Shown here: positions 26,172 through 48,991 of the stretch, one piece after another
Position numbering within the stretch: the stretch's first letter is position 1
How the letters are laid out: every line of letters starts with the position of its first letter
DNA from: a virus
Reading direction: 5' to 3' (one strand)
IMG/VR virus record: IMGVR_UViG_3300045581_000334
Location: 12,695-76,694 of that record
DNA length: 64,000 bases
Position numbers and translations under genes: made by a program
Notes under the pieces: model-generated
What the model saw: only the letters and a program-made list of their open reading frames with translations
What the model was told of the DNA's origin: nothing
The model's database searches: none

Positions 26172-26177
26172 AAATTC

Positions 26178-26846
26178 CTAATTATATTTATTATTATTTA
26201 TGTGACTTATCTCTATATGGTTTATATTTACATGACTAGGTAAAGATCCTACCCATCTAATTGTTTCAGCCATATCTGCAGCAGTTAAAGCGTTATCCTT
26301 TTTCTCTAACTGTGTGTCTATTGTTCCTGGGCACACTTCCGTAACCTTAATTCCATATGCTGGGAATTCCATTCTCATAGTGTCTATTAATCCCATTTCT
26401 CCACGTTTAGCATTTGAATAATTTCCGCTTCCACGGTATGGTACTTTTCCACACAAGGAAGTGACAAAAACAATAGTCGGAGATTCAGAATTTTTCATTG
26501 CTGGTACAAACAATTGAGACAAATACATTGGTCCAGAAACATTGATATCATACGCTCTTCTAAAGTTTTCCATAGTTTCGTTTATTAGATATGTTGGCCC
26601 TGCTCCACCGCCAGCATTATTTACTAATAGATCTAAAGTTATATCTTTATATTTATCGTAGAATGCCTTGATGGCTTTTTCATCAGTAATGTCTAAGCTG
26701 TATGTCTCTATGTTGTCAGAAGCAATCTCTGCCAACTTAGATAAATTACGTGACACAGCAATAACTTTGTACCCATTTTGGGATAAAACTTTTACTGTTT
26801 CGTAACCTACGCCCTTGCTAGCTCCAGTAACTATGGCGGTTTTCAT
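26178..26846 (-). CDS. Short-chain dehydrogenase/reductase
   Basis: TGASKGVG, NNAG and YSNAK motifs. Confidence 0.92.
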   Translation of the reverse strand: MKTAIVTGASKGVGYETVKVLSQNGYKVIAVSRNLSKLAEIASDNIETYSLDITDEKAIKAFYDKYKDITLDLLVNNAGGGAGPTYLINETMENFRRAYDINVSGPMYLSQLFVPAMKNSESPTIVFVTSLCGKVPYRGSGNYSNAKRGEMGLIDTMRMEFPAYGIKVTEVCPGTIDTQLEKKDNALTAADMAETIRWVGSLPSHVNINHIEISHINNNKYN

Positions 26847-26848
26847 AT

Positions 26849-27547
26849 TTACATCGTTGGATTATTTACTGGCTCCATGGTTCTATACCAATGAAGTGGT
26901 ACCATATACTTAAATCCGCTCTTAACTAAGTGTGCGGTGTGATGATATGGTGGAGATGATGGGAATATAATAACGCTCCCTGCCTCTGGCTTAATGGCTA
27001 TAGTAACTCTGTTTCCATCTTTTGCTACGGCAAAATCTTCTTCTGGCTTGCCCTGTATGATTGGTGCGTCTGGAGATTCAATGGTAAATGAAAGTTCTCC
27101 ACCCTCGTAATCATCGTTTAAATAAAACACAAGTGAGTACTTTAATCTAGTGTCTCCTTCTTGCTGATCAAAGTGTGCTCCCATGTAGGTTCCTGGGCTA
27201 TACTTCTTAATATCAAATAATGGGAAATTGATGGGAGTTTCGTTGTCTCCGTGAGCTTCCGCATAATCTTTACAAACGGCATAGAAGGCATCCATGATGG
27301 TGTTATAAATGTATCCAGCCTTATTGTCTGTTGTTTTAATTACTCTCTCTTCATCAGATGGGTTTACAGTTTTTTGAGCTCCGTAAAGATACATCTCTCC
27401 ACTACAGGCTGTCCACTCATTCCATTTAGTAACTGAATTACCCCATTCCTCATTTTCTGTGGAATCAATCATCTCCACAAACTTTTTTGGATCTGGTATT
27501 ACGTTCTTGTAATAGTAAACATTTTCTTCTAATATTTCTTTTTCCAT
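26849..27547 (-). CDS. 2OG-Fe(II) oxygenase (prolyl 4-hydroxylase-like)
   Basis: HFD...YLNDDYEGGEL...HTA...KY. Confidence 0.9.
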   Translation of the reverse strand: MEKEILEENVYYYKNVIPDPKKFVEMIDSTENEEWGNSVTKWNEWTACSGEMYLYGAQKTVNPSDEERVIKTTDNKAGYIYNTIMDAFYAVCKDYAEAHGDNETPINFPLFDIKKYSPGTYMGAHFDQQEGDTRLKYSLVFYLNDDYEGGELSFTIESPDAPIIQGKPEEDFAVAKDGNRVTIAIKPEAGSVIIFPSSPPYHHTAHLVKSGFKYMVPLHWYRTMEPVNNPTM

Positions 27548-27548
27548 G

Positions 27549-28292
27549 TCAATCTCCTATTTTATATTTCTTACCATTTGGATCAATCTTATAACCTTCT
27601 TTAAGAAGATCTTGCCACTCCGCCTTTTCTACTGCTTGCTGATCTCTAATCTTCTGCATTTCTTCTGCCCAAGCATCTCTGACTTCTTGTGGATAATCTG
27701 ATTCTTCTCTATCGTCCCAGAAAGACCCTAGAGTGTATCTAACTCCTGAAGTTATCATACTTACTTCATGCATGTTATTAAATCCGCCATCAAATGCAGC
27801 TAACAATCCAGTCTTAGGCTGTATGCTAATATCTTGTGATGGAAACTTAAGCATACCACCCTCAAAATTATCATTCAAATATAAGAAGGCTGCGTATCTA
27901 CTTCTTGCAAATGGCCCAGTGTTTCCTTTTTCATCTGTGTTGTCTGAATGTATTCTTGCATATGCTCCAGGCTCCCACTTTTGAGTATGGTATCCAATTT
28001 GAACTACCTTTTTAGGATCTAGTCCATGAACTGAAGCAACAGCATCTATAATTCCAGATCTAATTTGAGAAAATATGTCTGACTCCAAGCCAAACTCTTC
28101 TATCTCTGGATCTCCATCTTGTGGCAAAACCGATGAGTAAGATTCATAAAAAGAAATTGGAGTCCATGATAGTTTTTCTGTTTCAGCCTGCTTGTCTAAA
28201 ACTTTTATTAAAGCAGCGCACTGCTCTTCAGTTAAAAAGTTTTCATAAAGGACTATGTCCTTAGTCAATCTATTTTGATTATTTAAATTCAT
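27549..28292 (-). CDS. 2OG-Fe(II) oxygenase (prolyl 4-hydroxylase-like)
   Basis: HSD...YLNDNFEGG...HEV...RY. Confidence 0.9.
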   Translation of the reverse strand: MNLNNQNRLTKDIVLYENFLTEEQCAALIKVLDKQAETEKLSWTPISFYESYSSVLPQDGDPEIEEFGLESDIFSQIRSGIIDAVASVHGLDPKKVVQIGYHTQKWEPGAYARIHSDNTDEKGNTGPFARSRYAAFLYLNDNFEGGMLKFPSQDISIQPKTGLLAAFDGGFNNMHEVSMITSGVRYTLGSFWDDREESDYPQEVRDAWAEEMQKIRDQQAVEKAEWQDLLKEGYKIDPNGKKYKIGD

Positions 28293-29200
28293 TTTATCCT
28301 CACTAATCCATCTAGGTTTTTCTTTTGTACCTTTTCCTGGTACTCTGCCATTATTTCACCTTGCATTGATATCCACTTATCTCTGCCATACTTCTCTTCA
28401 TTCTCAAACCATTCTTTATCGCCAAGGTCATACTTTTGCCAATACATTCTAGTAAAAAGTTTTTCTCCGTTTAAGTTATTTGTAACTCCGTGTAGGTATA
28501 CCTTTCCATCTTCTGTAAGAATTTCTGGGTGCCCTGAAGGAAAAACTAAAAAATCTCCAGCTTTAGGCTTGTAAGAAAATATTTTATTATTAATAATAAA
28601 TTCAACTTCTCCGCCATCATAGTCGTCGTTTAGGTATGTAGTAGTTGTAATTGCAAATTTATATCCTGGGGTCTTAATAGGCTCTCTAATAAAGTCAGAA
28701 TGATAATTCATTGCCAATGGGTGTCCTTTTCCTGCATCATCAAAATACTTGCATAGGCTTGGACCAGTCCATCTCCAGGTGCTTATCTCAGAAACTACAG
28801 ATTGCTCAGAGTTATAAGTTTCTGAGTACAAGGAGTTTACTGGATTAGAGACATGAGTAGGATCAACATCTAGGTTAAACCTATTAATAAAATCATTATT
28901 TACTTTATGAAAACCTTTAACTAGCTCACAAATAAAATATTTTTGATCTCTTCCCTTATCGGTTGTAGGCTCTTCATGATCCCAGGCAAACTTCATTTCT
29001 CTATCGGATTTGTTAAAATTTATTCCGAACTTTTCTACTTTTTCTCCAAATTCGTACCATGGTTTCCAGTCTTCAAATATTCCTGTTTCTGAACTTCCAA
29101 TATCTTTAGCTATCCTATACATCTTGTCAACATCTTCTAATACGCCGTTATAAACTATAATATATGGATATATTTCTTCGCTATACATTCTTATCTCCAT
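28289..29200 (-). CDS. 2OG-Fe(II) oxygenase (prolyl 4-hydroxylase-like)
   Basis: HSD...YLNDDYDGGEV...HGV...K. Confidence 0.88.
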   Translation of the reverse strand: MEIRMYSEEIYPYIIVYNGVLEDVDKMYRIAKDIGSSETGIFEDWKPWYEFGEKVEKFGINFNKSDREMKFAWDHEEPTTDKGRDQKYFICELVKGFHKVNNDFINRFNLDVDPTHVSNPVNSLYSETYNSEQSVVSEISTWRWTGPSLCKYFDDAGKGHPLAMNYHSDFIREPIKTPGYKFAITTTTYLNDDYDGGEVEFIINNKIFSYKPKAGDFLVFPSGHPEILTEDGKVYLHGVTNNLNGEKLFTRMYWQKYDLGDKEWFENEEKYGRDKWISMQGEIMAEYQEKVQKKNLDGLVRIK

Positions 29201-29909
29201 CTATTAAAACCCTATAGTACTTCTTATCAGGTTCTGGCTTAACTTCTCCAGTATGTTCTAATATAGTCCAAAAGAATGGAACTGTATATCTTATGCTACC
29301 TTTTATTTCTGTTACACCGTGAATATAATTCATATCTCCAGGGAAAAAGTAGGCAGCACCTCTTTTAGGCTTAAATTGAATTCCTTGATTAGGGAAATAT
29401 AACTCTCCGCCTTCATAATCATCATTTAAATAAAACAAGCTAGCTAAATCATACCATGGAAAATCATTGGACAATCCAGCATCTGGCCCTTCATGTAATT
29501 CTTTGTCTGCGTGTGGTCTTTGGAATTGACCAGGTAGCCACCTAACGATTGTCTGCCCAGTTGGCTGAGCTTTTACCTTATAAAAATCTTCTATGATTGG
29601 CTGTAGTCTTTGAAAGAGTCCAACTATAACTGGAACAATGTTTGGATCATTTTTGTTTAAAGATGGAGCACTACAAACTCTGTCTTTCCAATAACTTGAA
29701 TCATATATAACTGTTCCATTTTCATTTACATGATCTTCTGTGTAGTCCCAAATTGTAATCTTTTTAGCAGCTGACTCAAGGAAGTTTATCTCATCTTCAG
29801 TCATAAAATTTTCTAGTTCAACAATCATATCCTTGCTGTACCCAAAAAATCCAGATGGGGTTATTGATTTCGGTGCGTGTAAGTGTATGTCTTTGTTTAC
29901 AATTTCCAT
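29181..29909 (-). CDS. 2OG-Fe(II) oxygenase (prolyl 4-hydroxylase-like)
   Basis: HAD...YLNDDYEGGELYF...HGV...RY. Confidence 0.9.
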   Translation of the reverse strand: MEIVNKDIHLHAPKSITPSGFFGYSKDMIVELENFMTEDEINFLESAAKKITIWDYTEDHVNENGTVIYDSSYWKDRVCSAPSLNKNDPNIVPVIVGLFQRLQPIIEDFYKVKAQPTGQTIVRWLPGQFQRPHADKELHEGPDAGLSNDFPWYDLASLFYLNDDYEGGELYFPNQGIQFKPKRGAAYFFPGDMNYIHGVTEIKGSIRYTVPFFWTILEHTGEVKPEPDKKYYRVLIDGDKNV

Positions 29910-29915
29910 ACTTAA

Positions 29916-30635
29916 TTATACCATTCCATTAGAAGCAGTATTATCATTTACAGATAACCTCAAAGTCTTAGTTTCATGAGAACCTAAAGAATTACCGTTC
30001 TCATCTACAGCGTCTCTATACCAATCCGTCCAGTTTCCAGAAGAATTTATAACCTGTGCGGCTTCTCCATAAGACATATTAGCATTGTGTCTAGACCTGT
30101 CATCATCTCTATACTGAACGATCTCTATAACTGAATTGTTTAAGTTACTCAAAGATATTGGAATTATTGTAGCTATTGGAGTACCAGCCTTGATTACAGT
30201 TTCTACATTTGCCTTTTTAGCTTTGATTGCTAAAGGCAATGGATTATCATAAAAAGATGTGCTCATTAAATTAGACATTGTTTCAAAATCTTCATTAAAA
30301 TAATTTACTGGATTTATTGTCCATATACTAACATCTGGGTCTGTCCTAAAAACCATACCTGTATTTAGACTTATTGTAGACTGTCCTCGTCCAGAGTAAG
30401 CATCAGCAGGTTTAGTTATCTTTACATGCTGGTCTGTCTGATCATTTATTCCATCCCAAGTAAAAATTATATCTTCTGTGCAGGATAAGTTCCATCCTAC
30501 TACGTTGGCCTGTGTTACTGGAAAACATCTGTAGGCATGCTTTTCTGAGGTAACATCCATCCATTCTCTTTTAATAGACATTGGATCTATTTTAAACTTA
30601 CACCCTTGCATTTTTTCTACCGATATATTAATCAT
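29916..30635 (-). CDS. DUF6065-like protein
   Basis: REWMD...HAYRCFPVTQANVVGW and KAGTPIATIIP motifs. Confidence 0.7.
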   Translation of the reverse strand: MINISVEKMQGCKFKIDPMSIKREWMDVTSEKHAYRCFPVTQANVVGWNLSCTEDIIFTWDGINDQTDQHVKITKPADAYSGRGQSTISLNTGMVFRTDPDVSIWTINPVNYFNEDFETMSNLMSTSFYDNPLPLAIKAKKANVETVIKAGTPIATIIPISLSNLNNSVIEIVQYRDDDRSRHNANMSYGEAAQVINSSGNWTDWYRDAVDENGNSLGSHETKTLRLSVNDNTASNGMV

Positions 30636-31318
30636 TATTCATTATCCCACTTTGGATCATACATATCTGGCGTATGATATTTTTTGCTATAATCAAGCAT
30701 TGTAACTATTGAATGTTTAGTTCCACTAGTTACTGGCATAGCTCTATGAGGATACATAAAATTAGAAGGAAATATATACAGGTCTCCAGCTTTTGGCTTT
30801 ATGTTTAAACCCTGAAGTCTAAAAAATAGCTCTCCGCCTTCGTAATCATCGTTTGGGTATGCTACAAGTGACACAGTACAGTTATAAGAATATCCATGAT
30901 CATGATGTTCTTGAAAGTGTTGGCCTGGTCCATATTTAATAAAATTAAAAGCTTCCCAATATTTTAATGGCATAATGTTAAACATTCTACGATAATCTTC
31001 AACTGCAGGATTTTGGGCATCATACACATCTTGCCACAAAGACTGTAGCTTTAATGATTCTTCGCTTTTATCTGCCTCTATGTCTGTTTTTTTAAACTTA
31101 AAATCTACACAATCTCTATAGTCTGGCATAAGTTGTTGGTATCCAACATAAGCTGGATTCCAGTGGTATCTTTTGCCATCTGGAGATAATTGTCCCCATG
31201 GGGCAACCTCTCCCAATACGCTGTCAAGTCTGTTTATAACATCAATTTCTGGTTTTATAACGTCTCTATAAACAACAATTCCTGTAGCCACTTCTTCTTT
31301 GCTAGACCATGTTTGCAT
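30635..31318 (-). CDS. 2OG-Fe(II) oxygenase (prolyl 4-hydroxylase-like)
   Basis: HHD...YPNDDYEGGEL...FPSNFMYPH...K. Confidence 0.9.
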   Translation of the reverse strand: MQTWSSKEEVATGIVVYRDVIKPEIDVINRLDSVLGEVAPWGQLSPDGKRYHWNPAYVGYQQLMPDYRDCVDFKFKKTDIEADKSEESLKLQSLWQDVYDAQNPAVEDYRRMFNIMPLKYWEAFNFIKYGPGQHFQEHHDHGYSYNCTVSLVAYPNDDYEGGELFFRLQGLNIKPKAGDLYIFPSNFMYPHRAMPVTSGTKHSIVTMLDYSKKYHTPDMYDPKWDNE

Positions 31319-32079
31319 TACTTGTACTCTCTTCTTGACCAGACATTCTTTATGTATACCCCACCGTCGGGAACCCTATACTTTTTCATGTTGTCATTCA
31401 TTTTAGCATAAATGTCATTTTGAGACAATAGCTCTATTTCACTTTCCCAATCTTCTCTTTTAAATGGGATAATTTGCATATATGGGGTTCCAGCTTTAAT
31501 TGTGCCTTCATATCCATCAACAACAAAAAATGGGAATGTTCCAGACAAATGAACTTTATCGTTATCTACAATCCCAGTAGTATTTAAAAATGGAAGATCG
31601 AATCTATTCATTGGTGTCATATATATACAGCTGTATCCTTCTGGAACCTCTAGACCCCAATCTGGCTGCCAAGCAAAGTGATACTTGTAGTAACCCTTTG
31701 GGTGCTCAAACTGTGGCATGGGTGGCCTTCTTGATACGAAGTCTCTGCAGTTTAATTCTGAAACCTTGACATCAATATTTCCCTGACTGTCTTTAAAAAA
31801 TGTTATGTCGCATGGTGTTTTTAAAACGTAACCTGTTGAGAACCCATCCATAATTGCTGGGCAAGCTTTCCAAGTTGGGATCTTGCCATAATCATCCTTA
31901 GTTCCTTCTTTTGGAAATGGACAAACCGCTTTAGGAGCTTTAAAATAATCTCCGTTTGGCATCTTAGCAAATCTGTCTGCCTCCTTGTACCACTTTGGCA
32001 TCACGGAGTGTGTTGTGGCAGGAGTTGACTTGCTATCTTTTTTTAACCAGGGCCTGAATGACCTAAAAATTATTTTCAT
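31318..32079 (-). CDS. DUF6065-like (dUTPase-like beta fold) protein
   Basis: PKWYK, KACP..MDG..TGY, PMNRFDLPF, GIVD.D and IKAGTP.MQIIPFKRE motifs. Confidence 0.65.
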   Translation of the reverse strand: MKIIFRSFRPWLKKDSKSTPATTHSVMPKWYKEADRFAKMPNGDYFKAPKAVCPFPKEGTKDDYGKIPTWKACPAIMDGFSTGYVLKTPCDITFFKDSQGNIDVKVSELNCRDFVSRRPPMPQFEHPKGYYKYHFAWQPDWGLEVPEGYSCIYMTPMNRFDLPFLNTTGIVDNDKVHLSGTFPFFVVDGYEGTIKAGTPYMQIIPFKREDWESEIELLSQNDIYAKMNDNMKKYRVPDGGVYIKNVWSRREYK

Positions 32080-32789
32080 TACTTATGACCGATTTCATTA
32101 ATGTCTGTCATAATAACAACACAATACTTAGTTCCCTCTTTCATTGGCAATGACGCATGTTCATAAATATAGTTTGATGGGAATATTGCAATATCTCCAA
32201 CTTTTGGGGTATGAATATGATTATCTAATCTTGGAAATTGTATCTCTCCACCCTCGTAGTCATCGTTAATATAAATTACTGCAGATACAGTACAATTATA
32301 TGCTGGCCCATGGTCGGCATGAATTCTAAAATGCTTACCTTCTCCTTCATACTTTACAAAGTTAAATGCTTCATAATATACAACATTTATCCCCCAGTAT
32401 CTTGCGTAATCATCAATACAAAATTTTAACTTCTCATAAATTTCATTATGTAAATCAATTAATGGAGCATTAAATTCATTTTTAGGGCCAAGGTTTTCTG
32501 GCTTAAATTTAAAATCTACGCAGTCCCTTGCCTTTTTAATCGGAACTACAGAATTTGTTACTTGAGCCTCTGACCATCTATATCTGGCCCCATTAGTTAA
32601 GTTGTCTTCAAGTATCTTTATATATCTTTCTGCGTCCTCTTTTGAAAAAGTATTATGATAAATGTTTAGACCTAATCCTGGATTAGTAGTTGTAATAGTA
32701 CTGTTAACTCTTCTTTCTGGCAGCCTATTAGAAGCTGTCTCAGATCTATCTTTATTAAACCAGTGGTCTTGTGGGTCTTGATAATTCAT
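32079..32789 (-). CDS. 2OG-Fe(II) oxygenase (prolyl 4-hydroxylase-like)
   Basis: HAD...YINDDYEGGEI...FPSNYIYEH...KY. Close paralogue of 30635..31318. Start moved to the ATG behind an AGGA RBS. Confidence 0.9.
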   Translation of the reverse strand: MNYQDPQDHWFNKDRSETASNRLPERRVNSTITTTNPGLGLNIYHNTFSKEDAERYIKILEDNLTNGARYRWSEAQVTNSVVPIKKARDCVDFKFKPENLGPKNEFNAPLIDLHNEIYEKLKFCIDDYARYWGINVVYYEAFNFVKYEGEGKHFRIHADHGPAYNCTVSAVIYINDDYEGGEIQFPRLDNHIHTPKVGDIAIFPSNYIYEHASLPMKEGTKYCVVIMTDINEIGHK

Positions 32790-32846
32790 TGTTTTTCCTA
32801 CCTTTACAAACACATTGTATCATAATAAATATTTTATTATGTTTAA

Positions 32847-35070: not shown

Positions 35071-36129
35071 TTATCCAACCACCTTTTCTATGGAATATTT
35101 TATATCATTCCATATATCTTCCATGTCTTCACACCCTACAGACAGTCTAATCAGGTTGTGGGGGACCAGGGGACTCTCTAGTGGCCAACGCCTTCTTCTT
35201 TCCCACAAAGACTCTACGCTTCCAAGGCTTGTAGCATATCCTATTAGTTTTGAAGAATAACATATCTCATCAACTTCGATTTCTGTTGCATCAATTTCAA
35301 AAGATACGACTCCTCCAAATCCAGGATAATATACTTTGTTAACTTTAGGATGGTTTTGTAGTCTCCAAACCAATCCTCTTGCGTTATTCTCAGACTTTTT
35401 AAATCTTAAAGGGAAAGTTCTTATGCCTCTCAAAGAAAGCCAGGATTCAAATGGTGCTGCTATAGTTCCGTTTATTTTTCTTTCAAACTCTATCTTCTCA
35501 AAAAGGTCATTGTTATTTGTAGATATAGATCCAATTAATACGTCGCTATGACCCGATAAATATTTTGTAACGGAATGTAATGAAATATCTGCACCCAGTT
35601 TAAGTGGCTGCTGATTAATTGGTGTCGCAAATGTATTATCCACTACAACAATAATATTTGATTGTTTAGCGCAATTTATTAAAGTTTCTAATTCTGCAAT
35701 ATCTAACATTGGGTTTGTAGGAGATTCTATCCACAACATATATGCACCTGCAAGATTTTCTATAACTTCTTCTGTATTTGCTATATCTACAAATCTTGCA
35801 ATTATTTTATTTTCATCATTTAGTTTTTTTAATGTGGCGTTTACTCCAGCATAACCTTGGTTTGATGCAACCACAATATTTCCAACTGGTACCGTTGATA
35901 AAATAGAACTCACTGCAGACATCCCAGAGCTAAAAGCTAATGTCTTTCCGCCCTCTAAAGATGATATTGCATTTTCTAAATCTTTACAGTTTTCATTTCC
36001 ATATCTTGCATAGCCAATATCTCCTCCAGCATAATATGTAGAGTTAAGAGATATTGGAGTATTGAATGGACCATCTGGACTTCTATCTGGTCTTCCAGAA
36101 TGTATAGATCTAGTATTAAATCCTGTCAT
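35071..36129 (-). CDS. Cys/Met metabolism PLP enzyme (cystathionine gamma-synthase/lyase-like)
   Basis: YARYGN, FSSGMSA, ESPTNP, VDNTFA, HSVTKYLSGHSD (PLP Lys) and LIRLSVGCED. Confidence 0.92.
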   Translation of the reverse strand: MTGFNTRSIHSGRPDRSPDGPFNTPISLNSTYYAGGDIGYARYGNENCKDLENAISSLEGGKTLAFSSGMSAVSSILSTVPVGNIVVASNQGYAGVNATLKKLNDENKIIARFVDIANTEEVIENLAGAYMLWIESPTNPMLDIAELETLINCAKQSNIIVVVDNTFATPINQQPLKLGADISLHSVTKYLSGHSDVLIGSISTNNNDLFEKIEFERKINGTIAAPFESWLSLRGIRTFPLRFKKSENNARGLVWRLQNHPKVNKVYYPGFGGVVSFEIDATEIEVDEICYSSKLIGYATSLGSVESLWERRRRWPLESPLVPHNLIRLSVGCEDMEDIWNDIKYSIEKVVG

Positions 36130-36130
36130 T

Positions 36131-37129
36131 TTATCCCCATATCGCTGCCGAGCATTTTGTACACATGTCTGAATACGACTTAAGTATCATATCAGATCTT
36201 TCTTTACTATTCCAAATATCTTTTAGGCTAGTAGAATTTACGTTTCCATATACAGTTTCAAAATCATAGTCTGCACAACAAATAAACAGATCTCCGTTTG
36301 GATTTATGTGTACCCACTCATTTGTCCTGCTTCTTATTTCTATTCCGCCATTACACCCTATAACCTTTTTATTATCAGACTTTAAATATTTATCAATGGC
36401 AAACCTTTGCGTAAGTATTCCATATTTTTCTAAGTGTGCAGCTCTGTCATATAAATGATGAGAGGTGCTAATATCTAAACCTGGAAACATTATTTTAAAC
36501 TGTTCTGCATCTCTTGCCAACTCTCCGTTATCATCATCTAGGTCTACTTTTGGCGCATTGCTTAAAAGGTCTAACCATCCACCATTTTTTGTTAGAGATG
36601 AATTATTTACCCCATTTACCATAAGGTGCAAATAAGGATTAAAAAGACCACTATTCTTTTTTTCATTTAAATATTTAACATTAGACACAACTTTATCAAA
36701 AAGTTTTATGTTCATATTAACGTATCTAGACCATCTTTCTGGTTCGGAAGCTGGTATGTTTAACAAGATTCCGTTAATAACGTCTTGATACTCTATAAGT
36801 AAATCAACTTTTTTCGGAGTTAACGCTACCCCGTTTGTTAAAATATTTGTTTTAAATCCATACTTTTTATAAACCTGCAGCATTTCTTCAAGGTGCTTAT
36901 AAAGTAAAACTTCATTATAATTTGCAGAGTATGCTAAGTTTAAATTTGGATCTACAAAGTCTCCCTTGCCTTCTGTCAACTGTCTCAATATATTATCTAA
37001 TTCAGATATCTCCATGTCTCTTATTGCTGATTTAGGGTTTCCCGCATAAGAAACTGGGCAGAACCAACAGCCAGCATTACAAAGTCCATTGACATCAATT
37101 TGAACTGCTTTAATCATATAATTATTCAT
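36131..37129 (-). CDS. Radical SAM protein with SPASM/twitch domain
   Basis: CNAGCWFC, LTNG and C-terminal GC...NGDLFICC...GNV...IWNS...CTKC. Confidence 0.9.
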   Translation of the reverse strand: MNNYMIKAVQIDVNGLCNAGCWFCPVSYAGNPKSAIRDMEISELDNILRQLTEGKGDFVDPNLNLAYSANYNEVLLYKHLEEMLQVYKKYGFKTNILTNGVALTPKKVDLLIEYQDVINGILLNIPASEPERWSRYVNMNIKLFDKVVSNVKYLNEKKNSGLFNPYLHLMVNGVNNSSLTKNGGWLDLLSNAPKVDLDDDNGELARDAEQFKIMFPGLDISTSHHLYDRAAHLEKYGILTQRFAIDKYLKSDNKKVIGCNGGIEIRSRTNEWVHINPNGDLFICCADYDFETVYGNVNSTSLKDIWNSKERSDMILKSYSDMCTKCSAAIWG

Positions 37130-37727
37130 ACTGTTTTCTATCCCAATAATATTTTTTATAAAAATTATTTTCTTTATATTTATTATTTCTAGTATCACAT
37201 TCTTCTAAAAGATTTTCATTTAATTCCATTGTCCATTGTTCTCTCATAAAAGGAATTATTTGAAATATAGGAGTTCCAGCTTTAATTATTCCTTCGAACC
37301 CCTCTTTTATAAAAAATGGAAGATTTCCTTTTGGCATTATAGAGTCTGAATCTACAATAGCCGACAAGGTTGTAAATGGCAAATCGTATCTGTTTATTGG
37401 ATGACAAATTAATATACTATAATCTTTAGGAGTTTTTATAATGTACGGATTTTTCCATAAAAATTGTCTGCTATCATGATTAAATGGTATTGGCATATTT
37501 CCAATACTGCTACTATCACGCAATCCAATAACATCTAAATCATTGTTTAAATCTATGTCTTGTTTTAAAACCATAGAGTATCCAGAAATAAATCCATCTA
37601 TAAAAGGCATGCAATGTTTTAGCATTAATGAACTTGGTTCATCTTTATACCATTGTGGTATTATTTTTTTTGCAGGTACAAGACTCATCTTTGTCTCATT
37701 TTCTTGACAGTAAAATTCAAGCTGCAT
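37122..37727 (-). CDS. DUF6065-like protein, paralogue of 31318..32079
   Basis: PQWYK, KHCMPFIDG..SGY, PINRYDLPF and IKAGTPIFQIIPF.RE.W. Confidence 0.65.
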   Translation of the reverse strand: MQLEFYCQENETKMSLVPAKKIIPQWYKDEPSSLMLKHCMPFIDGFISGYSMVLKQDIDLNNDLDVIGLRDSSSIGNMPIPFNHDSRQFLWKNPYIIKTPKDYSILICHPINRYDLPFTTLSAIVDSDSIMPKGNLPFFIKEGFEGIIKAGTPIFQIIPFMREQWTMELNENLLEECDTRNNKYKENNFYKKYYWDRKQYE

Positions 37728-37734
37728 GTTAAGA

Positions 37735-38358
37735 TTATATCTTATAGACTAATGCTTGTCCAGTAGGTAATTCTAAAATATTATCTACTCCAAAGAAATC
37801 ATTCATTGCTTTTCGTGCTCCTGGGGTTTTATCTGATCCATAATCGTCACATATCAATACCCCGCCTTTAATTAGTCTTGGCCAAAAATATTCTATAGAA
37901 TTTTTGGTGGGGTCATATAAATCAACATCTATATTAACATAGGAATATTGTTCATCATTAAGTTTATCAAATACCTCTGGGATCCAGCCTTTATATAAAT
38001 CTACATTATCAAAGTTTTTTAATATTTTCTCTGCAAATGATATACTTATAGATAATTTTTTAGACTTAAAATAATCGCTATCATATTCACCAGGTTCTGA
38101 GACACCCTCAAAAGAATCTACCCCTATGAATTTGTTTTTACAAAGATCCGCTACAAAAAACATAGACATTCCAGCATAAACACCGCACTCAGCAAAATTT
38201 CCTTTGTCTTTTTGCTGAGTGGCTAGTTGTCTTAATATGTATAATCTGGCATATAAAGAATTATTAATTTCATTATTTATTCCTGCTAGAATGTTAAATT
38301 GATTAAACAATGAAACAAACTTAGCATCTTGTTGCCAAGATGAGATATATGAATCCAC
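37735..38358 (-). CDS. TylF/MycF-family O-methyltransferase
   Basis: AECGVYAG, DSFEG, KGW, IDVDLY and GGVLICDDY motifs. Confidence 0.9.
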   Translation of the reverse strand: MDSYISSWQQDAKFVSLFNQFNILAGINNEINNSLYARLYILRQLATQQKDKGNFAECGVYAGMSMFFVADLCKNKFIGVDSFEGVSEPGEYDSDYFKSKKLSISISFAEKILKNFDNVDLYKGWIPEVFDKLNDEQYSYVNIDVDLYDPTKNSIEYFWPRLIKGGVLICDDYGSDKTPGARKAMNDFFGVDNILELPTGQALVYKI

Positions 38359-38359
38359 G

Positions 38360-39838
38360 TTACGAAATTACTAAATAATTTCCAACTAGGAACCAAGCAT
38401 GTGGGGCTGTTCTAATTTCATAAACATCTCCCTCATCAAGTATTTCAATCTTTTCAACTGGAACATATGAAACCTTTCCAGAGTTGCTATCAATATTTAC
38501 AAGAATATCTCCTACAACAATATCTTTAGGTTCTTTAGTACCAATTCCAACTTCATTTTTAATAAAGATTGGCTGATATGGTGAGAATAAATTTTCACCA
38601 TCATTTAATTTAATTAACTGCTTTTGGCTTAACTCGCTCTTAACAACTTCTGTTTCAATAAATTCAACATTATCAGATATTGACACGTTGTTTAGTGTAT
38701 CAGAATTTGTTAAATAACTTGGGTCAACTGTAAGCAAAATATCTCCTACCTTAATGTCTTCAGCATTAACATATCCATTGCTGGTAAGGATTTTAGATTT
38801 TGCATAGACACACTTATATCCCTTAGAGAAAGTTGGGAAGTATGGTGGGAAGAATGGGAAGAATGGGAAGTACGGGAAGAAAGGTGGGAAGAATGGGAAG
38901 AATGGGAAGTACGGGAAGAACGGTGGGAAGAATGGGAAGAATGGGAAGTACGGGAAGAACGGTGGGAAGAATGGGAAGAATGGGAAGTACGGGAAGAACG
39001 GTGGGAAGAATGGGAAGAATGGGAAGAATGGGAAGAACGGTGGGAAGAATGGGAAGAATGGGAAGAACGGGAAGAACGGTGGGAAGAATGGTGGGAAGAA
39101 CGGGAAGAACGGTGGGAAGAATGGGAAGAACGGTGGGAAGAATGGTGGGAAGAACGGTGGGAAGAACGGGAAAAACGGTGGGAAGAACGGTGGGAAGAAC
39201 GGTGGGAAGAACGGTGGAAAGAACGGTGGGAAGAACGGAGCTAAAGTTGTTATGCTGCTAGTTGTTGCTCCAGCAGAAGGCCCATTAGCGTTTGTTGCGG
39301 TAACAGTATAAGTTTGCGAAGTTCCTGCGGTATCTGAAATTACTACTGATGTTGCTGAGGCTGACAAGTCTCCTGAAGAAGATCCATCGCTACCAGTAAC
39401 ATTGTGTTTAGTTATTGCTTTTCCTCCGTTTGCCCCAATAGTCCAGCTAATTGTATTTTGATTAATTCCAGCTGTAGCAGTAACTGATTGTGGAGACTGA
39501 GGAACTGTAGTAATTGGAACAGATGAACTTGTTGTAGGAGAAGAAGATCCAGCATTATTTGATGCAACTACGGTGAATGTATAACTACCTGCAGATAAGC
39601 CAGTAAATGTATAAGATGTATTAGTGGTTGTTTGGCTTGATGATGCAGGAGTTGTAGTAATTGTATAAAGAGTTGCTGGTGGAGATGCTGCTGGCAAAGA
39701 CCAGCTTAAAGAAGCGGCTCCATTTCCGTATGGTCTACCTGTTCCTACGTCGGAAGCAGATAATCCAGTTACAGCATTTGGCTCTAAGAAATTATCTTGA
39801 GCTGAAGACTTTCTTCCTCTTCTTTTACTTGATGCCAT
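38360..39838 (-). CDS. FN3 x2 + Phe/Pro repeat + C-terminal Hint domain protein
   Basis: Two FN3 domains (LSWSLP...YTFTGL...YTFTVVASNNAG), a ~135-residue F/P/Y-only tract, then a Hint domain beginning CVYAKSKILT. Confidence 0.85.
   Translation of the reverse strand: MASSKRRGRKSSAQDNFLEPNAVTGLSASDVGTGRPYGNGAASLSWSLPAASPPATLYTITTTPASSSQTTTNTSYTFTGLSAGSYTFTVVASNNAGSSSPTTSSSVPITTVPQSPQSVTATAGINQNTISWTIGANGGKAITKHNVTGSDGSSSGDLSASATSVVISDTAGTSQTYTVTATNANGPSAGATTSSITTLAPFFPPFFPPFFPPFFPPFFPPFFPFFPPFFPPFFPPFFPFFPPFFPFFPPFFPPFFPFFPFFPFFPPFFPFFPFFPFFPPFFPYFPFFPFFPPFFPYFPFFPFFPPFFPYFPFFPFFPPFFPYFPFFPFFPPYFPTFSKGYKCVYAKSKILTSNGYVNAEDIKVGDILLTVDPSYLTNSDTLNNVSISDNVEFIETEVVKSELSQKQLIKLNDGENLFSPYQPIFIKNEVGIGTKEPKDIVVGDILVNIDSNSGKVSYVPVEKIEILDEGDVYEIRTAPHAWFLVGNYLVIS
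38363..38812 (-). other. Hint (intein-like) autoprocessing domain
   Basis: Block A C...ILTSNGYVNAEDIKVGD, KDIVVGD repeat and block F VEKIE...VYEIRT...FLVGNYLV; no terminal His-Asn. Confidence 0.8.
38828..39239 (-). repeat. Tandem 9/12-nt coding repeats (FFP / FFPP / YFP)
   Basis: Plus strand shows GGGAAGAA(C/T) and GGTGGGAAGAA units for ~410 nt. Confidence 0.97.
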
Positions 39839-39864: not shown

Positions 39865-42800
39865 TTAGGCTGACAAATCTCCAGCTAGCAACCAAGTATT
39901 TGTTGCTACTTTTGTTAATGTTGCCGATGAATAAGTTGTTCTTAACTTTAGCCCTGGTGTAGCTAGAATTGAAACTGTACCGTCTGCGGCTGCAAAACTT
40001 GCACCCGTTCCTGCAGATTGATAAAAATCAATTGAAGTTCCTACTGGGTAGGCTGTTGTTGAATTTGTTGGTACTGTTATTACATATGTTCCAGATACTG
40101 GTATTAATTGATCTCTTAATGAGAGTCCTCCAGTTGACAAATTGTATGCTGCTGAAATTGTTGTACCAATTGTAGTAAGTGAAGGAACGCCTTGTTTTGT
40201 CTGAGTTCCATCAGTAAATACTACGCCTGCAACTTCAACGTTATTTACTGCAAGATTGTCTAGAGATCCCTGTCCAAAATTTACAGTTGTTGCTGGCTCA
40301 TCTGCTACATCCTTGAAAATCTTCCACTTGGAATCAGAAACGTCTCTTACAATACCTGCGTGTTTTGCTGTGCCGTCTGTATATGCTACAACAAGACCAA
40401 GGTCTACGGTATTTGCCGCATTTTGATGAGCAAGCTGAACCATGTTATCTTCAATAACAATAGATGTTGAGCTTGCATTAAATGTTGTACCATTTACTGT
40501 TAAATTTCCGTCAACAGTCATATTGCCGTCAACTTCTAGGTTTCCAGTAAATGTTTGATTAGCAGCATTCTTATATGCTAATTGTGATGTATCAGAAATT
40601 CCGTGTACTGATGTTGTTGCTGAAGTATGAGATGTTACAGTAGAAGAAGCAGCCTTAGCATCAATCTGTGTTTGTACTGCTGAGGTTACTCCATCTAAAT
40701 ATCCTATTTCAGTTGAGCTAACATTTCCAACAGATGTTGTGGACGGAAGTACTACCGTACCAGTAAATGTTGGAGAAGCGATTGGTGCATAAGTTGAAGC
40801 AGCTGTTGCTGATGCAAGCTTAGTGTCAATCTGTGCCTGAATTCCAGAAGTCACTCCATCTAGATATCCAATTTCTGTTGAGCTAACATTTCCAATTGCT
40901 GTGGTGCCAGGAAGTGTTACCGTACCAGTAAATGTTGGGCCAGAAGAAGGAGCCTTGGATCCAAGATCTGATACCAGGTTGGCAATCTTAGACTGTTCAA
41001 TTTCTGCTGAAGCATTAATATCAGCATTTACAATTGTTCCATTTGCAATCTTTGCAGAAGTTACTGCTCCGTCATTAATTTTTTCAGTTGTTACAGCCAA
41101 GTCATTGATCTTGGCAGTTTCTACTGCCGAAGATGCTAATTGTGCTGCAGCAACTGCTGAGTCTGCAATTTTATCAGATGTTACCGCATCATTTGCAATT
41201 TTAGCTGTTGTAACATTTAAATCTGTAATTTTTACAGTAGTTACAGAATCTGCAGCAAGTTTATCTACTGTCACAGAAGTGTCTGCAATTTTTGCTGTAG
41301 ATACAGAACCTGCAGCAAGCTTATCGCTGGTTACAGATAAATCATTTATCTTTCCTGTAGTTACAGCCAAATCAACAATTTTTGCTGTAGAAACTGTATT
41401 GTCTGTTGGAGTTCTGGTATCAGACAAACGAGCATCATCTGTATACACAAGATTTGCTGTATTTGTTATACCATGTATGCTGGTTGTATCATCAGCATGT
41501 GATGTTAAAGCTGTCCCAGCAGTTGTTTCTGCAGCAGATTGAGCTGCTGATGCAGCATTATCTGCATAAGACTTGGTTGCCAAATCTGCAGTATTTGAAA
41601 TACCATGTACGCTAGTTGTGTCTGCGCTGTGATTGCTTAATTCTGTTGCTGCAACTGTGCCAACATTATCTGCATAAGCTTTTGTTGCAAGAAGAGAAGT
41701 ATCTGCTATTCCGTGAACATTATAAATAGTATTATTATGTCCAGTTAAATTAGACGATGCAGTATTCCCATATCCTTCTATTAAATTATCTACATATGCT
41801 TTATTGGTAGCATGCAAAGCTCCTACTGGATCGCCGCTTAGTGTTAAAGCTCCAGTCATCGTATCCCCAGCCTTAGAAACCTTAGTTCCAATGCTGTTGC
41901 TTACAGTAGTCGCAAAACTTGGATCGTCTCCAAGTGCTGCTGCCAACTCATTAAGAGTATTTAATGCAGCTGGTGAAGAATCTACTAAATCTGCAACCTT
42001 TTGGTCAGCGTATGCCTTAGCATCCACCTCAGCTTGATCTGCGTAAGCTTCATAAGCATTAGTAATTGCTGTTTCACGACCAGCAACATAAGCTTCATAA
42101 GCAGTGGTGATTGCTGTCTCACGAGCATCAGTGTAAGCTTTAGCATCTACTTCAGCTTGATCTGCGTAAGCTTGATAAGCGGTGGTAATTAACCCTTCAC
42201 GTGTATCTGTATAAGCTTTAGCATCTCCTTCTGCCTGATCTGCATAAGCTTCATAAGCAGTGGTGATTGCTGTCTCACGAGCATCAGTGTAAGCTTTAGC
42301 ATCTACTTCAGCTTGATCTGCGTAAGCTTTTGTAGCAAGGTCAGCTGTATTTGCTATACCATGTACGTTAGTTGAATCATTTTCGTGATTCGAAAGATTT
42401 GTTGCAACAGTTGTAAAGAATGTAGGGTCATCTCCAATTGCTGCTGCTAATTCATTTAAGGTATTTAATGCACCTGGTGCTCCATCTAGCATGGCAGTTA
42501 CTGCCGCATTTACTGCGTCATTAATTGCTTGAGTTGCTGTTAGCTCTTTCCAGTTTGCATTTGTGCTTGCAGGGGTTGATTGAAGCACATATGATGTTCC
42601 ATTGTCTGACTGAATTGCAATATCGCCTGGTTCAACAGTAAGGGCAAGACGAGCTGCTTGGTCTGCAACAGAATGAACTGTAATTTTTGCAAGTGGCGGC
42701 AAGTTCTGAGCTTTAATGTAGCCACTGGCATCTAATTGTGGCACTCCGTCTGGCTGGCCATAATCATCTGTAGTTAATGGTGTACCATCATTATTGACGA

Positions 42801-42957
42801 TAGCATAATCTAGATTTCTCCAGTTAGTTGAGCCATCACCAATCTTAATTCTATTTGTGTCTGTTTCAATAGCAAGCTCGCCTGCTGCTAATTGTGGATT
42901 TGCGTCATACCAATCTTGGTACTCGCCTCGTCTAAGTTGAATTCTTACTGTTGCCAT
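39865..42957 (-). CDS. Long tail fibre-like protein
   Basis: N-terminal IQLRRG...NPQLAAGE...KIGDG.T.W, two LNTLNELAAA-DDP motifs, 10-aa VTTAKIAD repeats and C-terminal PGLKLR...WLLAGDLS. Confidence 0.85.
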   Translation of the reverse strand: MATVRIQLRRGEYQDWYDANPQLAAGELAIETDTNRIKIGDGSTNWRNLDYAIVNNDGTPLTTDDYGQPDGVPQLDASGYIKAQNLPPLAKITVHSVADQAARLALTVEPGDIAIQSDNGTSYVLQSTPASTNANWKELTATQAINDAVNAAVTAMLDGAPGALNTLNELAAAIGDDPTFFTTVATNLSNHENDSTNVHGIANTADLATKAYADQAEVDAKAYTDARETAITTAYEAYADQAEGDAKAYTDTREGLITTAYQAYADQAEVDAKAYTDARETAITTAYEAYVAGRETAITNAYEAYADQAEVDAKAYADQKVADLVDSSPAALNTLNELAAALGDDPSFATTVSNSIGTKVSKAGDTMTGALTLSGDPVGALHATNKAYVDNLIEGYGNTASSNLTGHNNTIYNVHGIADTSLLATKAYADNVGTVAATELSNHSADTTSVHGISNTADLATKSYADNAASAAQSAAETTAGTALTSHADDTTSIHGITNTANLVYTDDARLSDTRTPTDNTVSTAKIVDLAVTTGKINDLSVTSDKLAAGSVSTAKIADTSVTVDKLAADSVTTVKITDLNVTTAKIANDAVTSDKIADSAVAAAQLASSAVETAKINDLAVTTEKINDGAVTSAKIANGTIVNADINASAEIEQSKIANLVSDLGSKAPSSGPTFTGTVTLPGTTAIGNVSSTEIGYLDGVTSGIQAQIDTKLASATAASTYAPIASPTFTGTVVLPSTTSVGNVSSTEIGYLDGVTSAVQTQIDAKAASSTVTSHTSATTSVHGISDTSQLAYKNAANQTFTGNLEVDGNMTVDGNLTVNGTTFNASSTSIVIEDNMVQLAHQNAANTVDLGLVVAYTDGTAKHAGIVRDVSDSKWKIFKDVADEPATTVNFGQGSLDNLAVNNVEVAGVVFTDGTQTKQGVPSLTTIGTTISAAYNLSTGGLSLRDQLIPVSGTYVITVPTNSTTAYPVGTSIDFYQSAGTGASFAAADGTVSILATPGLKLRTTYSSATLTKVATNTWLLAGDLSA
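42000..42330 (-). repeat. 66-nt tandem coding repeat (AYADQAEVDAKAYTDARETAITT)
   Basis: About 4-5 near-identical copies visible at DNA and protein level. Confidence 0.85.
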
Positions 42958-46233: not shown

Positions 46234-46998
46234 CTAGCAAGGGTAGTTTCCTCCTCCGCCTCCGCAAGATCTGACATCTGAAGTTATGCATGACCCAAAT
46301 CCTATAAATGTAGGAGAGGAACATATTTGATATGTTCCATCTGAACAAAGTTTCCTGGTTCCCTCATAAATTCCTTGATATGAGTCCTCGCCATTACATG
46401 TAGGAATAATAACTTGATATGGCTCGCAATTTCCACAACTAAAAGATTGGAATGATGGTGGGAAGAATGGCGGGAAGAATGGGAATGATGGTGGGAAGAA
46501 TGGCGGGAAGAATGGGAATGATGGTGGGAAGAATGGCGGGAAGAATGGGAATGATGGTGGGAAGAATGGCGGGAAGAATGGGAATGATGGTGGGAAGAAT
46601 GGTGGGAAGAATGGGAATGATGGTGGGAAGAATGGCGGGAAGAACGGTGCAAAGTAAGGTGGGAAGAACGGCGGGAAGAATGGGAAGTACGGCGGGAAGA
46701 ACGGTGGGAAGAACGGGAAGAATGGGAAGAACGGTGGGAAGAACGGCGGGAAGAATGGAGGCGCTACATATCTATAATAGACAAAAGGAACAGTATCTCC
46801 CAATAAAGAAACTGAGTTTTCTGAAACTCCTTGACTTTGAATTAAATTATCAAGATTAATATTTGCAGTATCTATATATGATTCTGTATAATTTAACCCT
46901 AAAGAATTTAAATCGTTTTTAGCTTGAGACCTAGATTTTCCAGATAAATTTGGAACATTTCTTTTTCTTCTTCCGTGTCTACCAAATAGACTAAACAT
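46234..46998 (-). CDS. PASTA-like + Phe/Pro repeat + Cys-rich tip protein
   Basis: VPNLSGKSRSQAKNDLNSLGL (PASTA-like), a ~105-aa F/P tract, then an 8-Cys C-terminus. Confidence 0.8.
   Translation of the reverse strand: MFSLFGRHGRRKRNVPNLSGKSRSQAKNDLNSLGLNYTESYIDTANINLDNLIQSQGVSENSVSLLGDTVPFVYYRYVAPPFFPPFFPPFFPFFPFFPPFFPPYFPFFPPFFPPYFAPFFPPFFPPSFPFFPPFFPPSFPFFPPFFPPSFPFFPPFFPPSFPFFPPFFPPSFPFFPPFFPPSFQSFSCGNCEPYQVIIPTCNGEDSYQGIYEGTRKLCSDGTYQICSSPTFIGFGSCITSDVRSCGGGGGNYPC
46446..46759 (-). repeat. Tandem coding repeats including 33-nt units (PFFPPFFPPSF)
   Basis: GGGAATGATGGTGGGAAGAATGGCGGGAAGAAT repeated about 5-6 times. Confidence 0.97.
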
Positions 46999-46999
46999 A

Positions 47000-48991
47000 T
47001 CATACGCTCAAATCGCCCATGGCGACCCAAGAATTTAATGCTCTTTTCACCAGGGTTGCTGAACTCCATTTAGCTCTCAATTTCAATCCAGGAGTTGCGT
47101 CTATGGTAAATCCAGATCCTCTAAGAGTAACCTGAGAATCACCTGTTTGTAATATATTAACCGTAAACCCTACTGCAAATGAAGATGAGTCTACTATGTC
47201 TAAAAATCCTCCGCCAGACATTTCAATAAGTTTTCCTAAATCTCCAGGAACAACAATATAGGTTGCTGCCTGTGGATTTCTTACTGTAAGCTTATCAAGC
47301 TTAGTGTCAAGTGCTGTTTGTGTGGCAGTTGAAACTGGTTTGTTAGCATCAGATGTATTGTCTACATTTTCAAGACCAACCATTGATTTTGTAATTCCAG
47401 AAACTGTACCAGTAAAGGTCGGAGAAGATAGTGGAGCATAAGTAGCAATTGCGTTGGATTGAGTCAAGTATGTAGAAGAAGCTAAAGAAGAATCTAATTT
47501 ATTTCCTATAGCATTACTTATTGTTGTAGCGTAATTAGGATCATCTCCTAATGCTGCCGCCAACTCATTAAGAGTATTTAAAGTTTCTGGAGCGGAGTCT
47601 ACAAGATTAGATATTGCAGTATTGACATAAGTTTCAGTAGCATATCCAGTCAAGCTAGGTATTACTGGCTTATCCGTTAAATCATTATAGCTAGTTATAA
47701 TCTCTGTATCTCTTGCAATTGAATCTGGAATTTGAATGTCTGGTATCTTTGCGTTTCCGTCTAATGTTGCAACTCCATCTTGAACTCCTCTTTGGGATAA
47801 TGGAATAAACTCACCAGTTGTATTAGACAAGTTAAATGCTAAGTCGTCTAATTGTTCTTGAACTGAACTTGTTGTGCCGCTTAGTCTTTCTACATCTATA
47901 GATGTTAAATTAGCAGAAGGTAGAGTGTGCCACTCTGTATCATAATCGATTGCAGAAGATTTTATTAAAAATTGTCCAGCAGTTCCACCTTCTGATACGC
48001 CTGGTCCAGATTCACCTTGAATGCCTTGTGGGCCTTGTAAACCTTGCTCACCCTGAATTCCTTGTGGCCCTTGTAATCCTTGCTCACCCTGAATTCCTTG
48101 TTGACCTTGAATACCTTGTGGACCAGGTTCGCCTTGCTCTCCTTGAATACCTTGTGGACCCTGGTCTCCTTGTGGACCCTGAATTCCTTGTAATCCTTGT
48201 GGTCCAATTTCTCCTTGTATCCCTTGAGGTCCCTGTGGGCCAACTTCACCCTGAATACCTTGTTCTCCTTGGATTCCTTGCGGTCCTTGAGGTCCTTGTG
48301 GTCCAACAATTTGTCCAACATTATTCCATAGAGATCCGTCCCAAACATAAAGATCTCCGTTATCTTGATTAATATAACTATCACCAATTACATTACCTGT
48401 ATTAGGTAAAGAGGTTTCATTAGTTACAGATCCCTTTAATACTATAGATGTTCCAGCAGAGCCTTGTATTCCTTGCTCTCCCTGAATTCCTTGTGGTCCT
48501 TGAGGTCCCTGTGGGCCAACTTCACCCTGAATACCTTGTGGGCCCTGAATGCCTTGTGGACCAGATTCACCTTGTTCGCCTTGAATTCCTTGCGGTCCTT
48601 GAATTCCTTGTAATCCTTGTGGTCCCTGTAAACCTTGTTCACCTTGTGGCCCCTGCGGTCCTGGTATTCCTTGAGTGCCACCTGCTGGTCCCGCTGGACC
48701 TGCTGGGCCTTCTGGACCAAGGGAAACTTCTACCCAGTATGTGCCATCATAAACATAAAGTTTAGCGTCATCATTGTCGTACCAGATTTTTCCTTCATAA
48801 GATATTTCTGGAGATGGCAGTGTTGAACTTACATGTGCAAATGCTTGTGCACCTAAATCCTGCCATTGATTTCCTGAGTAATATCTTGCTTTTTGAGATA
48901 CTGTATTAAAATACAGATCTCCCTCAGAGGCAGATAAAGGGTCAAACTCTAGTCCAGATAAGTTTAATGGGACTTTAAATTTACGAGCCAC
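47000..48991 (-). CDS. Collagen-like tail fibre protein
   Basis: Two (G-x-Q)n collagen tracts, LNTLNELAAA motif and C-terminal PGLKLR...WVAMGDLS. Confidence 0.9.
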   Translation of the reverse strand: MARKFKVPLNLSGLEFDPLSASEGDLYFNTVSQKARYYSGNQWQDLGAQAFAHVSSTLPSPEISYEGKIWYDNDDAKLYVYDGTYWVEVSLGPEGPAGPAGPAGGTQGIPGPQGPQGEQGLQGPQGLQGIQGPQGIQGEQGESGPQGIQGPQGIQGEVGPQGPQGPQGIQGEQGIQGSAGTSIVLKGSVTNETSLPNTGNVIGDSYINQDNGDLYVWDGSLWNNVGQIVGPQGPQGPQGIQGEQGIQGEVGPQGPQGIQGEIGPQGLQGIQGPQGDQGPQGIQGEQGEPGPQGIQGQQGIQGEQGLQGPQGIQGEQGLQGPQGIQGESGPGVSEGGTAGQFLIKSSAIDYDTEWHTLPSANLTSIDVERLSGTTSSVQEQLDDLAFNLSNTTGEFIPLSQRGVQDGVATLDGNAKIPDIQIPDSIARDTEIITSYNDLTDKPVIPSLTGYATETYVNTAISNLVDSAPETLNTLNELAAALGDDPNYATTISNAIGNKLDSSLASSTYLTQSNAIATYAPLSSPTFTGTVSGITKSMVGLENVDNTSDANKPVSTATQTALDTKLDKLTVRNPQAATYIVVPGDLGKLIEMSGGGFLDIVDSSSFAVGFTVNILQTGDSQVTLRGSGFTIDATPGLKLRAKWSSATLVKRALNSWVAMGDLSV

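Follow-up and report, generated by a model that had tools for sequence, protein, structure and literature searches.

Introduction

Known forms of the Hint domain are inteins, cholesterol transferases of the Hedgehog type and bacterial intein-like (BIL) and pretoxin modules. Ligation by A-type BIL domains proceeds without a nucleophilic side chain. Here we analyse a gene in a 64,000-nucleotide stretch of viral DNA (IMG/VR record IMGVR_UViG_3300045581_000334, positions 12,695 to 76,694; this whole stretch is called the window) whose product joins two FN3 domains, a tract rich in phenylalanine and proline (the F/P tract) and a C-terminal Hint domain. Judged from gene order and domain content, the product is probably a virion-surface protein from the tail-fibre module of a freshwater tailed phage. 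Its Hint domain is incompetent for splicing and is, as predicted from its sequence, probably still active in autoprocessing. We slightly favour a reading in which the domain cuts itself off by way of a thioester at Lys342-Cys343.

BIL domains are likewise non-mobile Hint modules with a Cys1 nucleophile, found in variable proteins of surface or secreted type. The B-type lacks the C-terminal motif (PMC7765530), as does the clade of the window's protein, whose domain falls short of the Hint_2 cut-off and has no block B histidine. The A-type resembles a sister clade with His-Asn and a non-nucleophilic residue; the window's protein has no His-Asn and is therefore not of A-type. Unlike in BILs, the domain of the phage family lies at the extreme C-terminus (0 or 1-14 residues follow), carries a conserved glutamine for the block B histidine, is preceded by a Pro/aromatic repeat and is encoded among tail-fibre-module genes. 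The HhC domains of Hedgehog and Hog proteins (1AT0, 6TYY) are also C-terminal and non-splicing, and free their N-terminal cargo by cleavage via a cysteine thioester, the same being proposed for the phage domain. A similar layout is found in choanoflagellate Hoglet, in which a binding domain and a long low-complexity tract precede the Hog domain (PMC2362128). Unlike Hog proteins, the phage protein has neither a sterol- or adduct-recognition region nor the TxxH histidine, shows no signal peptide by eye and is only ~13-14% identical. Unlike inteins (Npu DnaB, Mtu RecA, gp41-1), the phage domain is not inserted in a host protein and is devoid of C-extein, +1 nucleophile, His-Asn and homing endonuclease, with the stop codon directly after Ser492. 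Unlike pretoxin HINT (PT-HINT) domains, it is not followed by a C-terminal toxin cargo.

Results

Layout of the gene and fold of its C-terminal domain

The gene comprises the following features.

38360-39838, minus strand: whole gene, FN3-FN3-(F/P)n-Hint protein of 492 amino acids (aa), one open reading frame (ORF)
39779-39838, minus strand: basic leader, aa 1-20, rich in Lys and Arg, followed by an ..AQDNFLEP motif
39227-39718, minus strand: two FN3 (Ig-like) domains, about aa 41-204, from Pfam fn3 and PHROG
38834-39235, minus strand: F/P tract, 134 aa, composed of F, P and Y only
38813-38833, minus strand: spacer TFSKGYK, aa 336-342, with the -1 residue Lys342 at its end
38363-38812, minus strand: Hint domain, aa 343-492, 150 aa
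38810-38812, minus strand: Cys343, Hint Cys1 and predicted nucleophile, from conservation, structural alignment and its being the lone Cys
38603-38605, minus strand: Asn412, invariant and family-specific, from conservation
38570-38584, minus strand: block B equivalent S419-P-Y-Q422-P423, from hidden Markov model (HMM) alignment to BIL TFDHP and conservation
38411-38425, minus strand: block F equivalent V472-Y-E-I-R476, from conservation
38363-38368, minus strand: Ile491-Ser492 at the block G His-Asn positions, Ser492 being the last residue

The ORF starts with ATG and stops with TAA (38360-38362), and the GTG of the next gene lies at 38358, 1 nt beyond. The junction reads ...YFPTFSKGYK/CVYAKSK, with Lys342-Cys343 as the predicted scissile bond (the Lys342 codon is 38813-38815), and the protein ends ...VGNYLVIS-stop, without His-Asn and without any residue beyond. 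The original prediction, a reading of this DNA from its letters, had described the ORF, the F/P repeat, the junction and the LVIS end correctly in every detail. It had also assigned a Hint fold to the last 150 residues, and structure prediction, Foldseek and profile search now agree on that assignment.

A single-sequence AlphaFold2 (AF2) model of the domain reached a pLDDT of 32, and an alignment-based model was used instead; with a 47-row family alignment AF2 gave a pLDDT of 93.8 and a pTM of 0.86. The top PDB matches listed by Foldseek for this model are Hint-fold proteins at a probability of 1.00, including the C. thermocellum BIL 2LWY, Hedgehog HhC (1AT0/6TYY), Tetrahymena BUBL BIL2 and many inteins. 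Cys343 (model residue 11) superposes on intein residue 1 and on Hedgehog (Hh) Cys258, and the last model residue aligns to the end of the Hint core (Hh residue 400 or the intein terminal Asn). This is further supported by a search of PDB with the family profile, which matched 2LWY over its full length (E 8.4e-12). Pfam recognises Intein_splicing in 16 of the 47 members, PT-HINT in 6/47 and Hint_2 in 6/47; on the window's domain PT-HINT stays below cut-off (E 0.064). The ESM Atlas neighbours are viral clusters with the same Hint families. By predicted fold and by profile, the last 150 residues are thus a genuine and complete minimal member of the Hint superfamily.

Canonical splicing had been called impossible, and the alignment bears this out: the penultimate His and terminal Asn are replaced by Ile-Ser. 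Lacking Asn, C-extein and a +1 nucleophile, the domain cannot splice.

An invariant cysteine and a conserved block B variant

The catalytic cysteine stands where it was expected and is invariant: Cys1 is found in 43/43 sequences that cover the start of the domain, at identities down to ~25-30%. It is the lone cysteine of the domain in most members of the clade. Since Cys343 is the only cysteine in the 492-residue protein, it is not a disulfide partner.

Block B had been described as degenerate (FSPYQP), a view that the family alignment overturns, as the entire family keeps S-x-x-Q-P as its signature. HMM alignment places it over T-F-D-H-P of BIL domains, with S419 at the Thr and Q422 at the His position. 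Ser or Thr fills the first position in 60/62 sequences, and only polar residues stand at the His position (Q 48, E 8, H 7 in the 62-sequence set). Such conservation across the family speaks for an alternative active site that has been maintained, and against decay. Asn412 is present in 62/62 sequences from both clades of the family. Block F has an acidic residue at the Asp position, within V-Y-(D/E)-I-R at 472-476, of which Arg476 is conserved in the clade without His-Asn only (30/32). Further strongly conserved positions are GD at 365-366 and 443-444 and W-F-I at 482-484. The domain is under purifying selection, with a ratio of non-synonymous to synonymous substitution rates (dN/dS) of 0.21-0.22 against two close relatives, L003 and L004.

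The same residues can be read as those of a catalytically dead Hint fold that stays attached as a distal knob, serving as receptor-binding or docking module of a whisker-like protein. The replacement of the block B His by Gln and of the block G His-Asn by Ile-Ser would fit this, as would the position at the C-terminal tip, where the receptor-binding domains of fibre-like proteins typically reside, and purifying selection suits any functional domain. Against such a knob speak an invariant Cys1 at the domain boundary, lone in most clade members, and the conservation of S-x-x-Q-P and the block F acidic residue, which falls on catalytic rather than on fold positions. Moreover, a Pro/aromatic tract precedes the domain in 39 of 40 relatives, which suggests that the Hint domain acts on this tract. 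We regard a dead knob as unlikely, while giving it serious weight.

Proposed autoprocessing

We infer thioester formation and cleavage, as well as the timing and purpose of the latter, from the features above. In the proposed mechanism the folded Hint domain would strain the Lys342-Cys343 peptide bond, and attack by Cys343 would bring about an N-S acyl shift to a thioester, aided by Ser419 and Gln422 of S-x-x-Q-P, by the block F acidic residue and possibly by Arg476. In the absence of Asn, C-extein and adduct-recognition region, the one canonical course left is for a nucleophile, which may be water or another group, to resolve the thioester, hydrolysis being the simplest outcome. This would release the 150-residue Hint domain (16.6 kDa) and leave a mature FN3-FN3-(F/P)n protein ending in ...TFSKGYK at Lys342. 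The Hint domain may thus serve as a C-terminal pro-domain that can be removed from an extremely hydrophobic Pro/aromatic tract, which it would keep soluble or unassembled until the protein has reached its place. Transfer to a lipid or small molecule finds no specific support, as a sterol- or adduct-recognition extension is lacking.

The logic would be that of N-terminal cleavage in Hedgehog and BIL proteins, used in the manner of the self-cleaving C-terminal chaperone domains of fibres. C-terminal intramolecular chaperone domains of tailspikes and fibres are thought to be shed autocatalytically after assembly. The likeness to peptidase S74-type chaperones of phage tailspikes and fibres is one of logic only, a shed C-terminal domain: fold and chemistry are unrelated (a Ser-Lys dyad there, a Cys thioester here), and we saw no sequence or structure match between the S74-type chaperone and the phage Hint domain. 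The S74-type domain is a subject of PMC3742440 and PMC3828593.

Several observations weigh against shedding by this route. No catalytic residue of inteins is more conserved than the block B His, which is also indispensable in Hedgehog, and the phage domain departs from the canonical T-x-x-H, Ser being a conservative change and His being replaced by Gln. The penultimate His of block G is likewise lost. Pfam Hint_2 matches the window's domain alone with E 0.024 and 15.4 bits against a cut-off of 28.4. The placement in the virion is a prediction from gene order and domain types, and the conserved cysteine could serve metal binding or a differently formed covalent link. Five clade members have Gly at the -1 position, which bears on a possible compensation: the block B His, usually essential, is absent from a few natural inteins, and bulky -1 residues can make up for its loss in the N-S acyl shift (PMC6333167). 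In the window's protein the -1 residue is Lys, which is bulky and speaks for a maintained active site; given the five members with Gly, compensation by the -1 residue is not general.

A phage-borne family with a constant C-terminal module

An exhaustive HMMER search of 1.84 billion representatives, with clusters at 50% identity, gave 68 clusters with E < 1e-3, among which 29 have E < 1e-10; the weakest matches shade into true inteins. The relatives are metagenomic and mostly viral, and the domain is always C-terminal. In 39/40 full-length relatives a Pro/aromatic tract occupies the 45 residues before Cys1 (medians over the 40: 33% Pro, 36% aromatic). The heads vary from FN3 and PASTA domains to large multi-domain proteins of 640-970 aa, and so do the repeat units (FFPP, PPDFTPV, FTPFGF or plain Pro-rich), so that the constant module is the Pro/aromatic tract, the Cys and the Hint domain. 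The K/R-rich leader with its ..AQDNFLEP motif is kept in alignments of the FN3-type relatives.

Two C-terminal forms occur, one ending in H-N followed by K or a short tail, the other in [IV]-[SA]-stop. The latter, which includes the window's protein, forms one clade (support 93/89, 20 rows), with forms ending H-N-K as its sister; by this sequence grouping, the state without His-Asn is old and monophyletic. Throughout this clade a [S/Y/G/T]-F-K motif stands 2-8 residues ahead of Cys1, and it is present in TFSKGYK. Positional orthologues at L005:7134-8474 and L010:4128-5450 share the leader and FN3 head (at most 58% identity) and the preceding fibre. The Hint domain joined to this head belongs to the other clade and closes with ...IIRN, Asn being the final residue; the head has thus been conserved while Hint modules were exchanged between the clades.

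The sources label every cluster member 'hypothetical protein', and the best BFVD matches are proteins of uncultured Caudovirales with the automatic names 'Fibronectin type III', 'PASTA_pknB' or 'Hint domain containing protein'. Megablast and tblastn searches with the gene and the domain gave no match in 50,697 phage records, so relatives in cultured phages are not known from that collection. A single-protein scan of the genomes of 185,579 prokaryote species, a method of low sensitivity, gave no relative, and a full-text search of a limited collection yielded no paper on phage fibre-module proteins that end in a Hint domain. This clade of phage-borne Hint domains, strictly C-terminal, marked by S-x-x-Q and tied to Pro/aromatic repeats in tail-fibre modules, is a branch undescribed as far as these searches reach.

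Integrity of the reading frame across the repeat

Of 130 residues counted in the F/P tract, 71 are Phe, 54 Pro and 5 Tyr, in ~16 FFPP, 17 FFP and 5 YFP units, and its DNA is a tandem array of 9/21/39 nt. Short-read contigs from four independent runs all end inside this repeat, and the exact repeat length of 134 aa is without independent confirmation from them; three IMG/VR contigs begin within it. The independent contig L003 spans the repeat in frame and yields a 514-aa version. An uninterrupted frame through FN3, F/P tract and Cys domain is also found in dozens of more distant relatives, and the indels seen inside the repeat are of 3 nt only. The FN3-F/P-Hint architecture itself is thus safe despite the contig breaks.

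These breaks, together with the weak Pfam matches to PT-HINT and Hint_2, could be taken to mean that the domain is a remnant of a mobile intein, a pretoxin-type Hint domain without its downstream part, or an artefact of assembly or frame. The spanning contig speaks against the last of these. The architecture is kept in ~68 clusters with the domain always terminal, the state without His-Asn is old and monophyletic at a dN/dS of 0.21, and there is neither a homing endonuclease nor an interrupted conserved host protein. Explanations of this kind are largely refuted, and we give them hardly any credence.

In the comparison with reads all runs were contigs, and two RNA-labelled libraries may contain DNA. 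Summed contig depth over the F/P repeat (38974-39155) reached thousands in these two metatranscriptomic-labelled libraries and between hundreds and 1,200 in DNA runs, whereas the flanks had 5-80. Near-identical FFPP-coding repeats are thus present on many other contigs from the same lakes, suggesting that FFPP-repeat proteins are common there.

Genome context and a possible upstream partner

The source record (76.7 kb, ~64% complete) holds portal, protease, capsid, adaptor and tail genes, and its DNA was found in freshwater metagenomes from ~15 studies. Its portal shares 57-59% identity with the portals of Streptomyces phages. No member of the WhiB family was found in the 76.7-kb record (64% complete), which leaves portal identity as the sole basis for a putative actinobacterial host. 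Several tail-fibre-like genes lie upstream of the F/P-Hint gene, and fibre homologues hold this place in the syntenic loci. Pfam fn3 is above cut-off in the protein (E 3e-9, 2 stretches, best 41-104), and the Ig region of PHROG phrog_31, 'central tail fiber J', matches aa 42-193; both lines place the gene in a tail-fibre module. By-eye inspection of the K/R-rich N-terminus revealed no hydrophobic core of a signal peptide. The neighbouring features that bear on the gene are listed here.

39865-42957, minus strand: upstream tail-fibre-like gene, 1030 aa, with a conserved C-terminal domain of ~76 aa
39868-40100 and 47003-47230, minus strand, and L012:3350-3578: copies of the ~76-aa C-terminal domain
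25605-32813, minus strand: array with seven PF13640 genes (prolyl-4-hydroxylase (P4H)-type 2-oxoglutarate-Fe(II) oxygenases)

Synteny was analysed over 22 related IMG/VR loci. In nearly every syntenic locus, L009 being the exception, the gene directly before the F/P-Hint gene ends in the ~76-aa domain (...TPGLKLR...SS.T..K....W...GDLSA), which has no Pfam match. The pairing persists where Hint identity is only ~29% and the upstream gene is otherwise unrelated, and the ~76-aa domain is a possible docking or assembly partner of the F/P-repeat proteins. A complex prediction for the C-terminal 175 aa of the upstream fibre with the leader and FN3 domains scored 0.00 and weighs neither way.

This possible partner brings up the reading of the domain as an active single-use ligase, whose thioester would be resolved by a specific nucleophile instead of water: an amine or hydroxyl of another virion protein such as the preceding fibre, a host cell-wall component, or an internal spacer Lys, the last leading to cyclisation. 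The superfamily offers precedents in A-type BIL ligation and in the cholesterol transfer of Hedgehog, which is described in PMC7765530. The BIL 2LWY and Tetrahymena BUBL BIL2 are among the closest structures, the [S/Y/G/T]-F-K motif precedes Cys1 throughout the clade, heads of the muropeptide-binding PASTA type occur in relatives, and the recurrent domain on the upstream gene would provide a partner. Against a ligase stands the end of the protein at the last Hint residue, with no adduct-recognition extension. Furthermore, a second F/P protein, encoded behind a fibre with the same C-terminal domain, has no Hint domain, which indicates that covalent attachment via Hint is not needed for pairing with a fibre. 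Ligation is distinctly unlikely on this evidence, and we retain self-shedding through a thioester as the preferred reading.

The second F/P-repeat protein (46234-46998, minus strand, 254 aa) has a basic leader, a PASTA-like domain (Pfam E 9e-4, below cut-off), ~105 aa of FFPP/SFPFFPP repeats and a ~65-aa tail with 8 Cys. It sits behind the tail fibre at 47000-48991 (minus strand), which contains long collagen-like G-x-Q/G-P-Q repeats and has the same ~76-aa C-terminal domain.

The seven PF13640 enzymes are candidate modifiers of the Pro-rich tract. In L005-L011, homologues of window positions 26849-31318, a part of the oxygenase array, directly follow the F/P-Hint gene. The array also holds a DUF6065 gene and a short-chain dehydrogenase. 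The collagen-like fibre and the F/P tracts are the obvious candidate substrates of such P4H-like oxygenases. One could further imagine that, after hydroxylation of its prolines by the phage P4H-like oxygenases, the poised thioester of the Pro/aromatic stalk is resolved by an amine of the host cell wall or of a partner fibre. This sortase-like resolution, a 'chemical harpoon', would give a covalent phage-host or intra-virion bond; we consider it a very improbable course of events.

Between the F/P-Hint gene and this array lies an inserted island (35071-38358, minus strand) with a TylF-type O-methyltransferase, a phrog_7084 protein, a radical-SAM/SPASM enzyme and a pyridoxal phosphate (PLP) enzyme of Cys/Met metabolism. 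The island is present only in the close relatives L001-L004 and is missing at the same position in L005-L011. A coupling of the radical-SAM/SPASM, TylF and PLP genes to the F/P-Hint gene, in the manner of a ribosomally synthesised and post-translationally modified peptide (RiPP), was rejected because these genes are confined to L001-L004.

Discussion

A large, conserved branch of Hint domains borne by phages would extend Hint chemistry to a new biological use. With its conserved Gln, the family offers a natural test case for an N-S acyl shift without the 'essential' block B His. If active, the domain would yield C-terminal thioesters from a compact module (150 aa, Asn-free, single-Cys), a property of practical interest for expressed protein ligation. 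For the biology of these viruses, our analysis points to virion surface proteins that mature post-translationally in abundant freshwater phages, by self-cleavage and possibly by proline hydroxylation through the seven neighbouring P4H-like enzymes.

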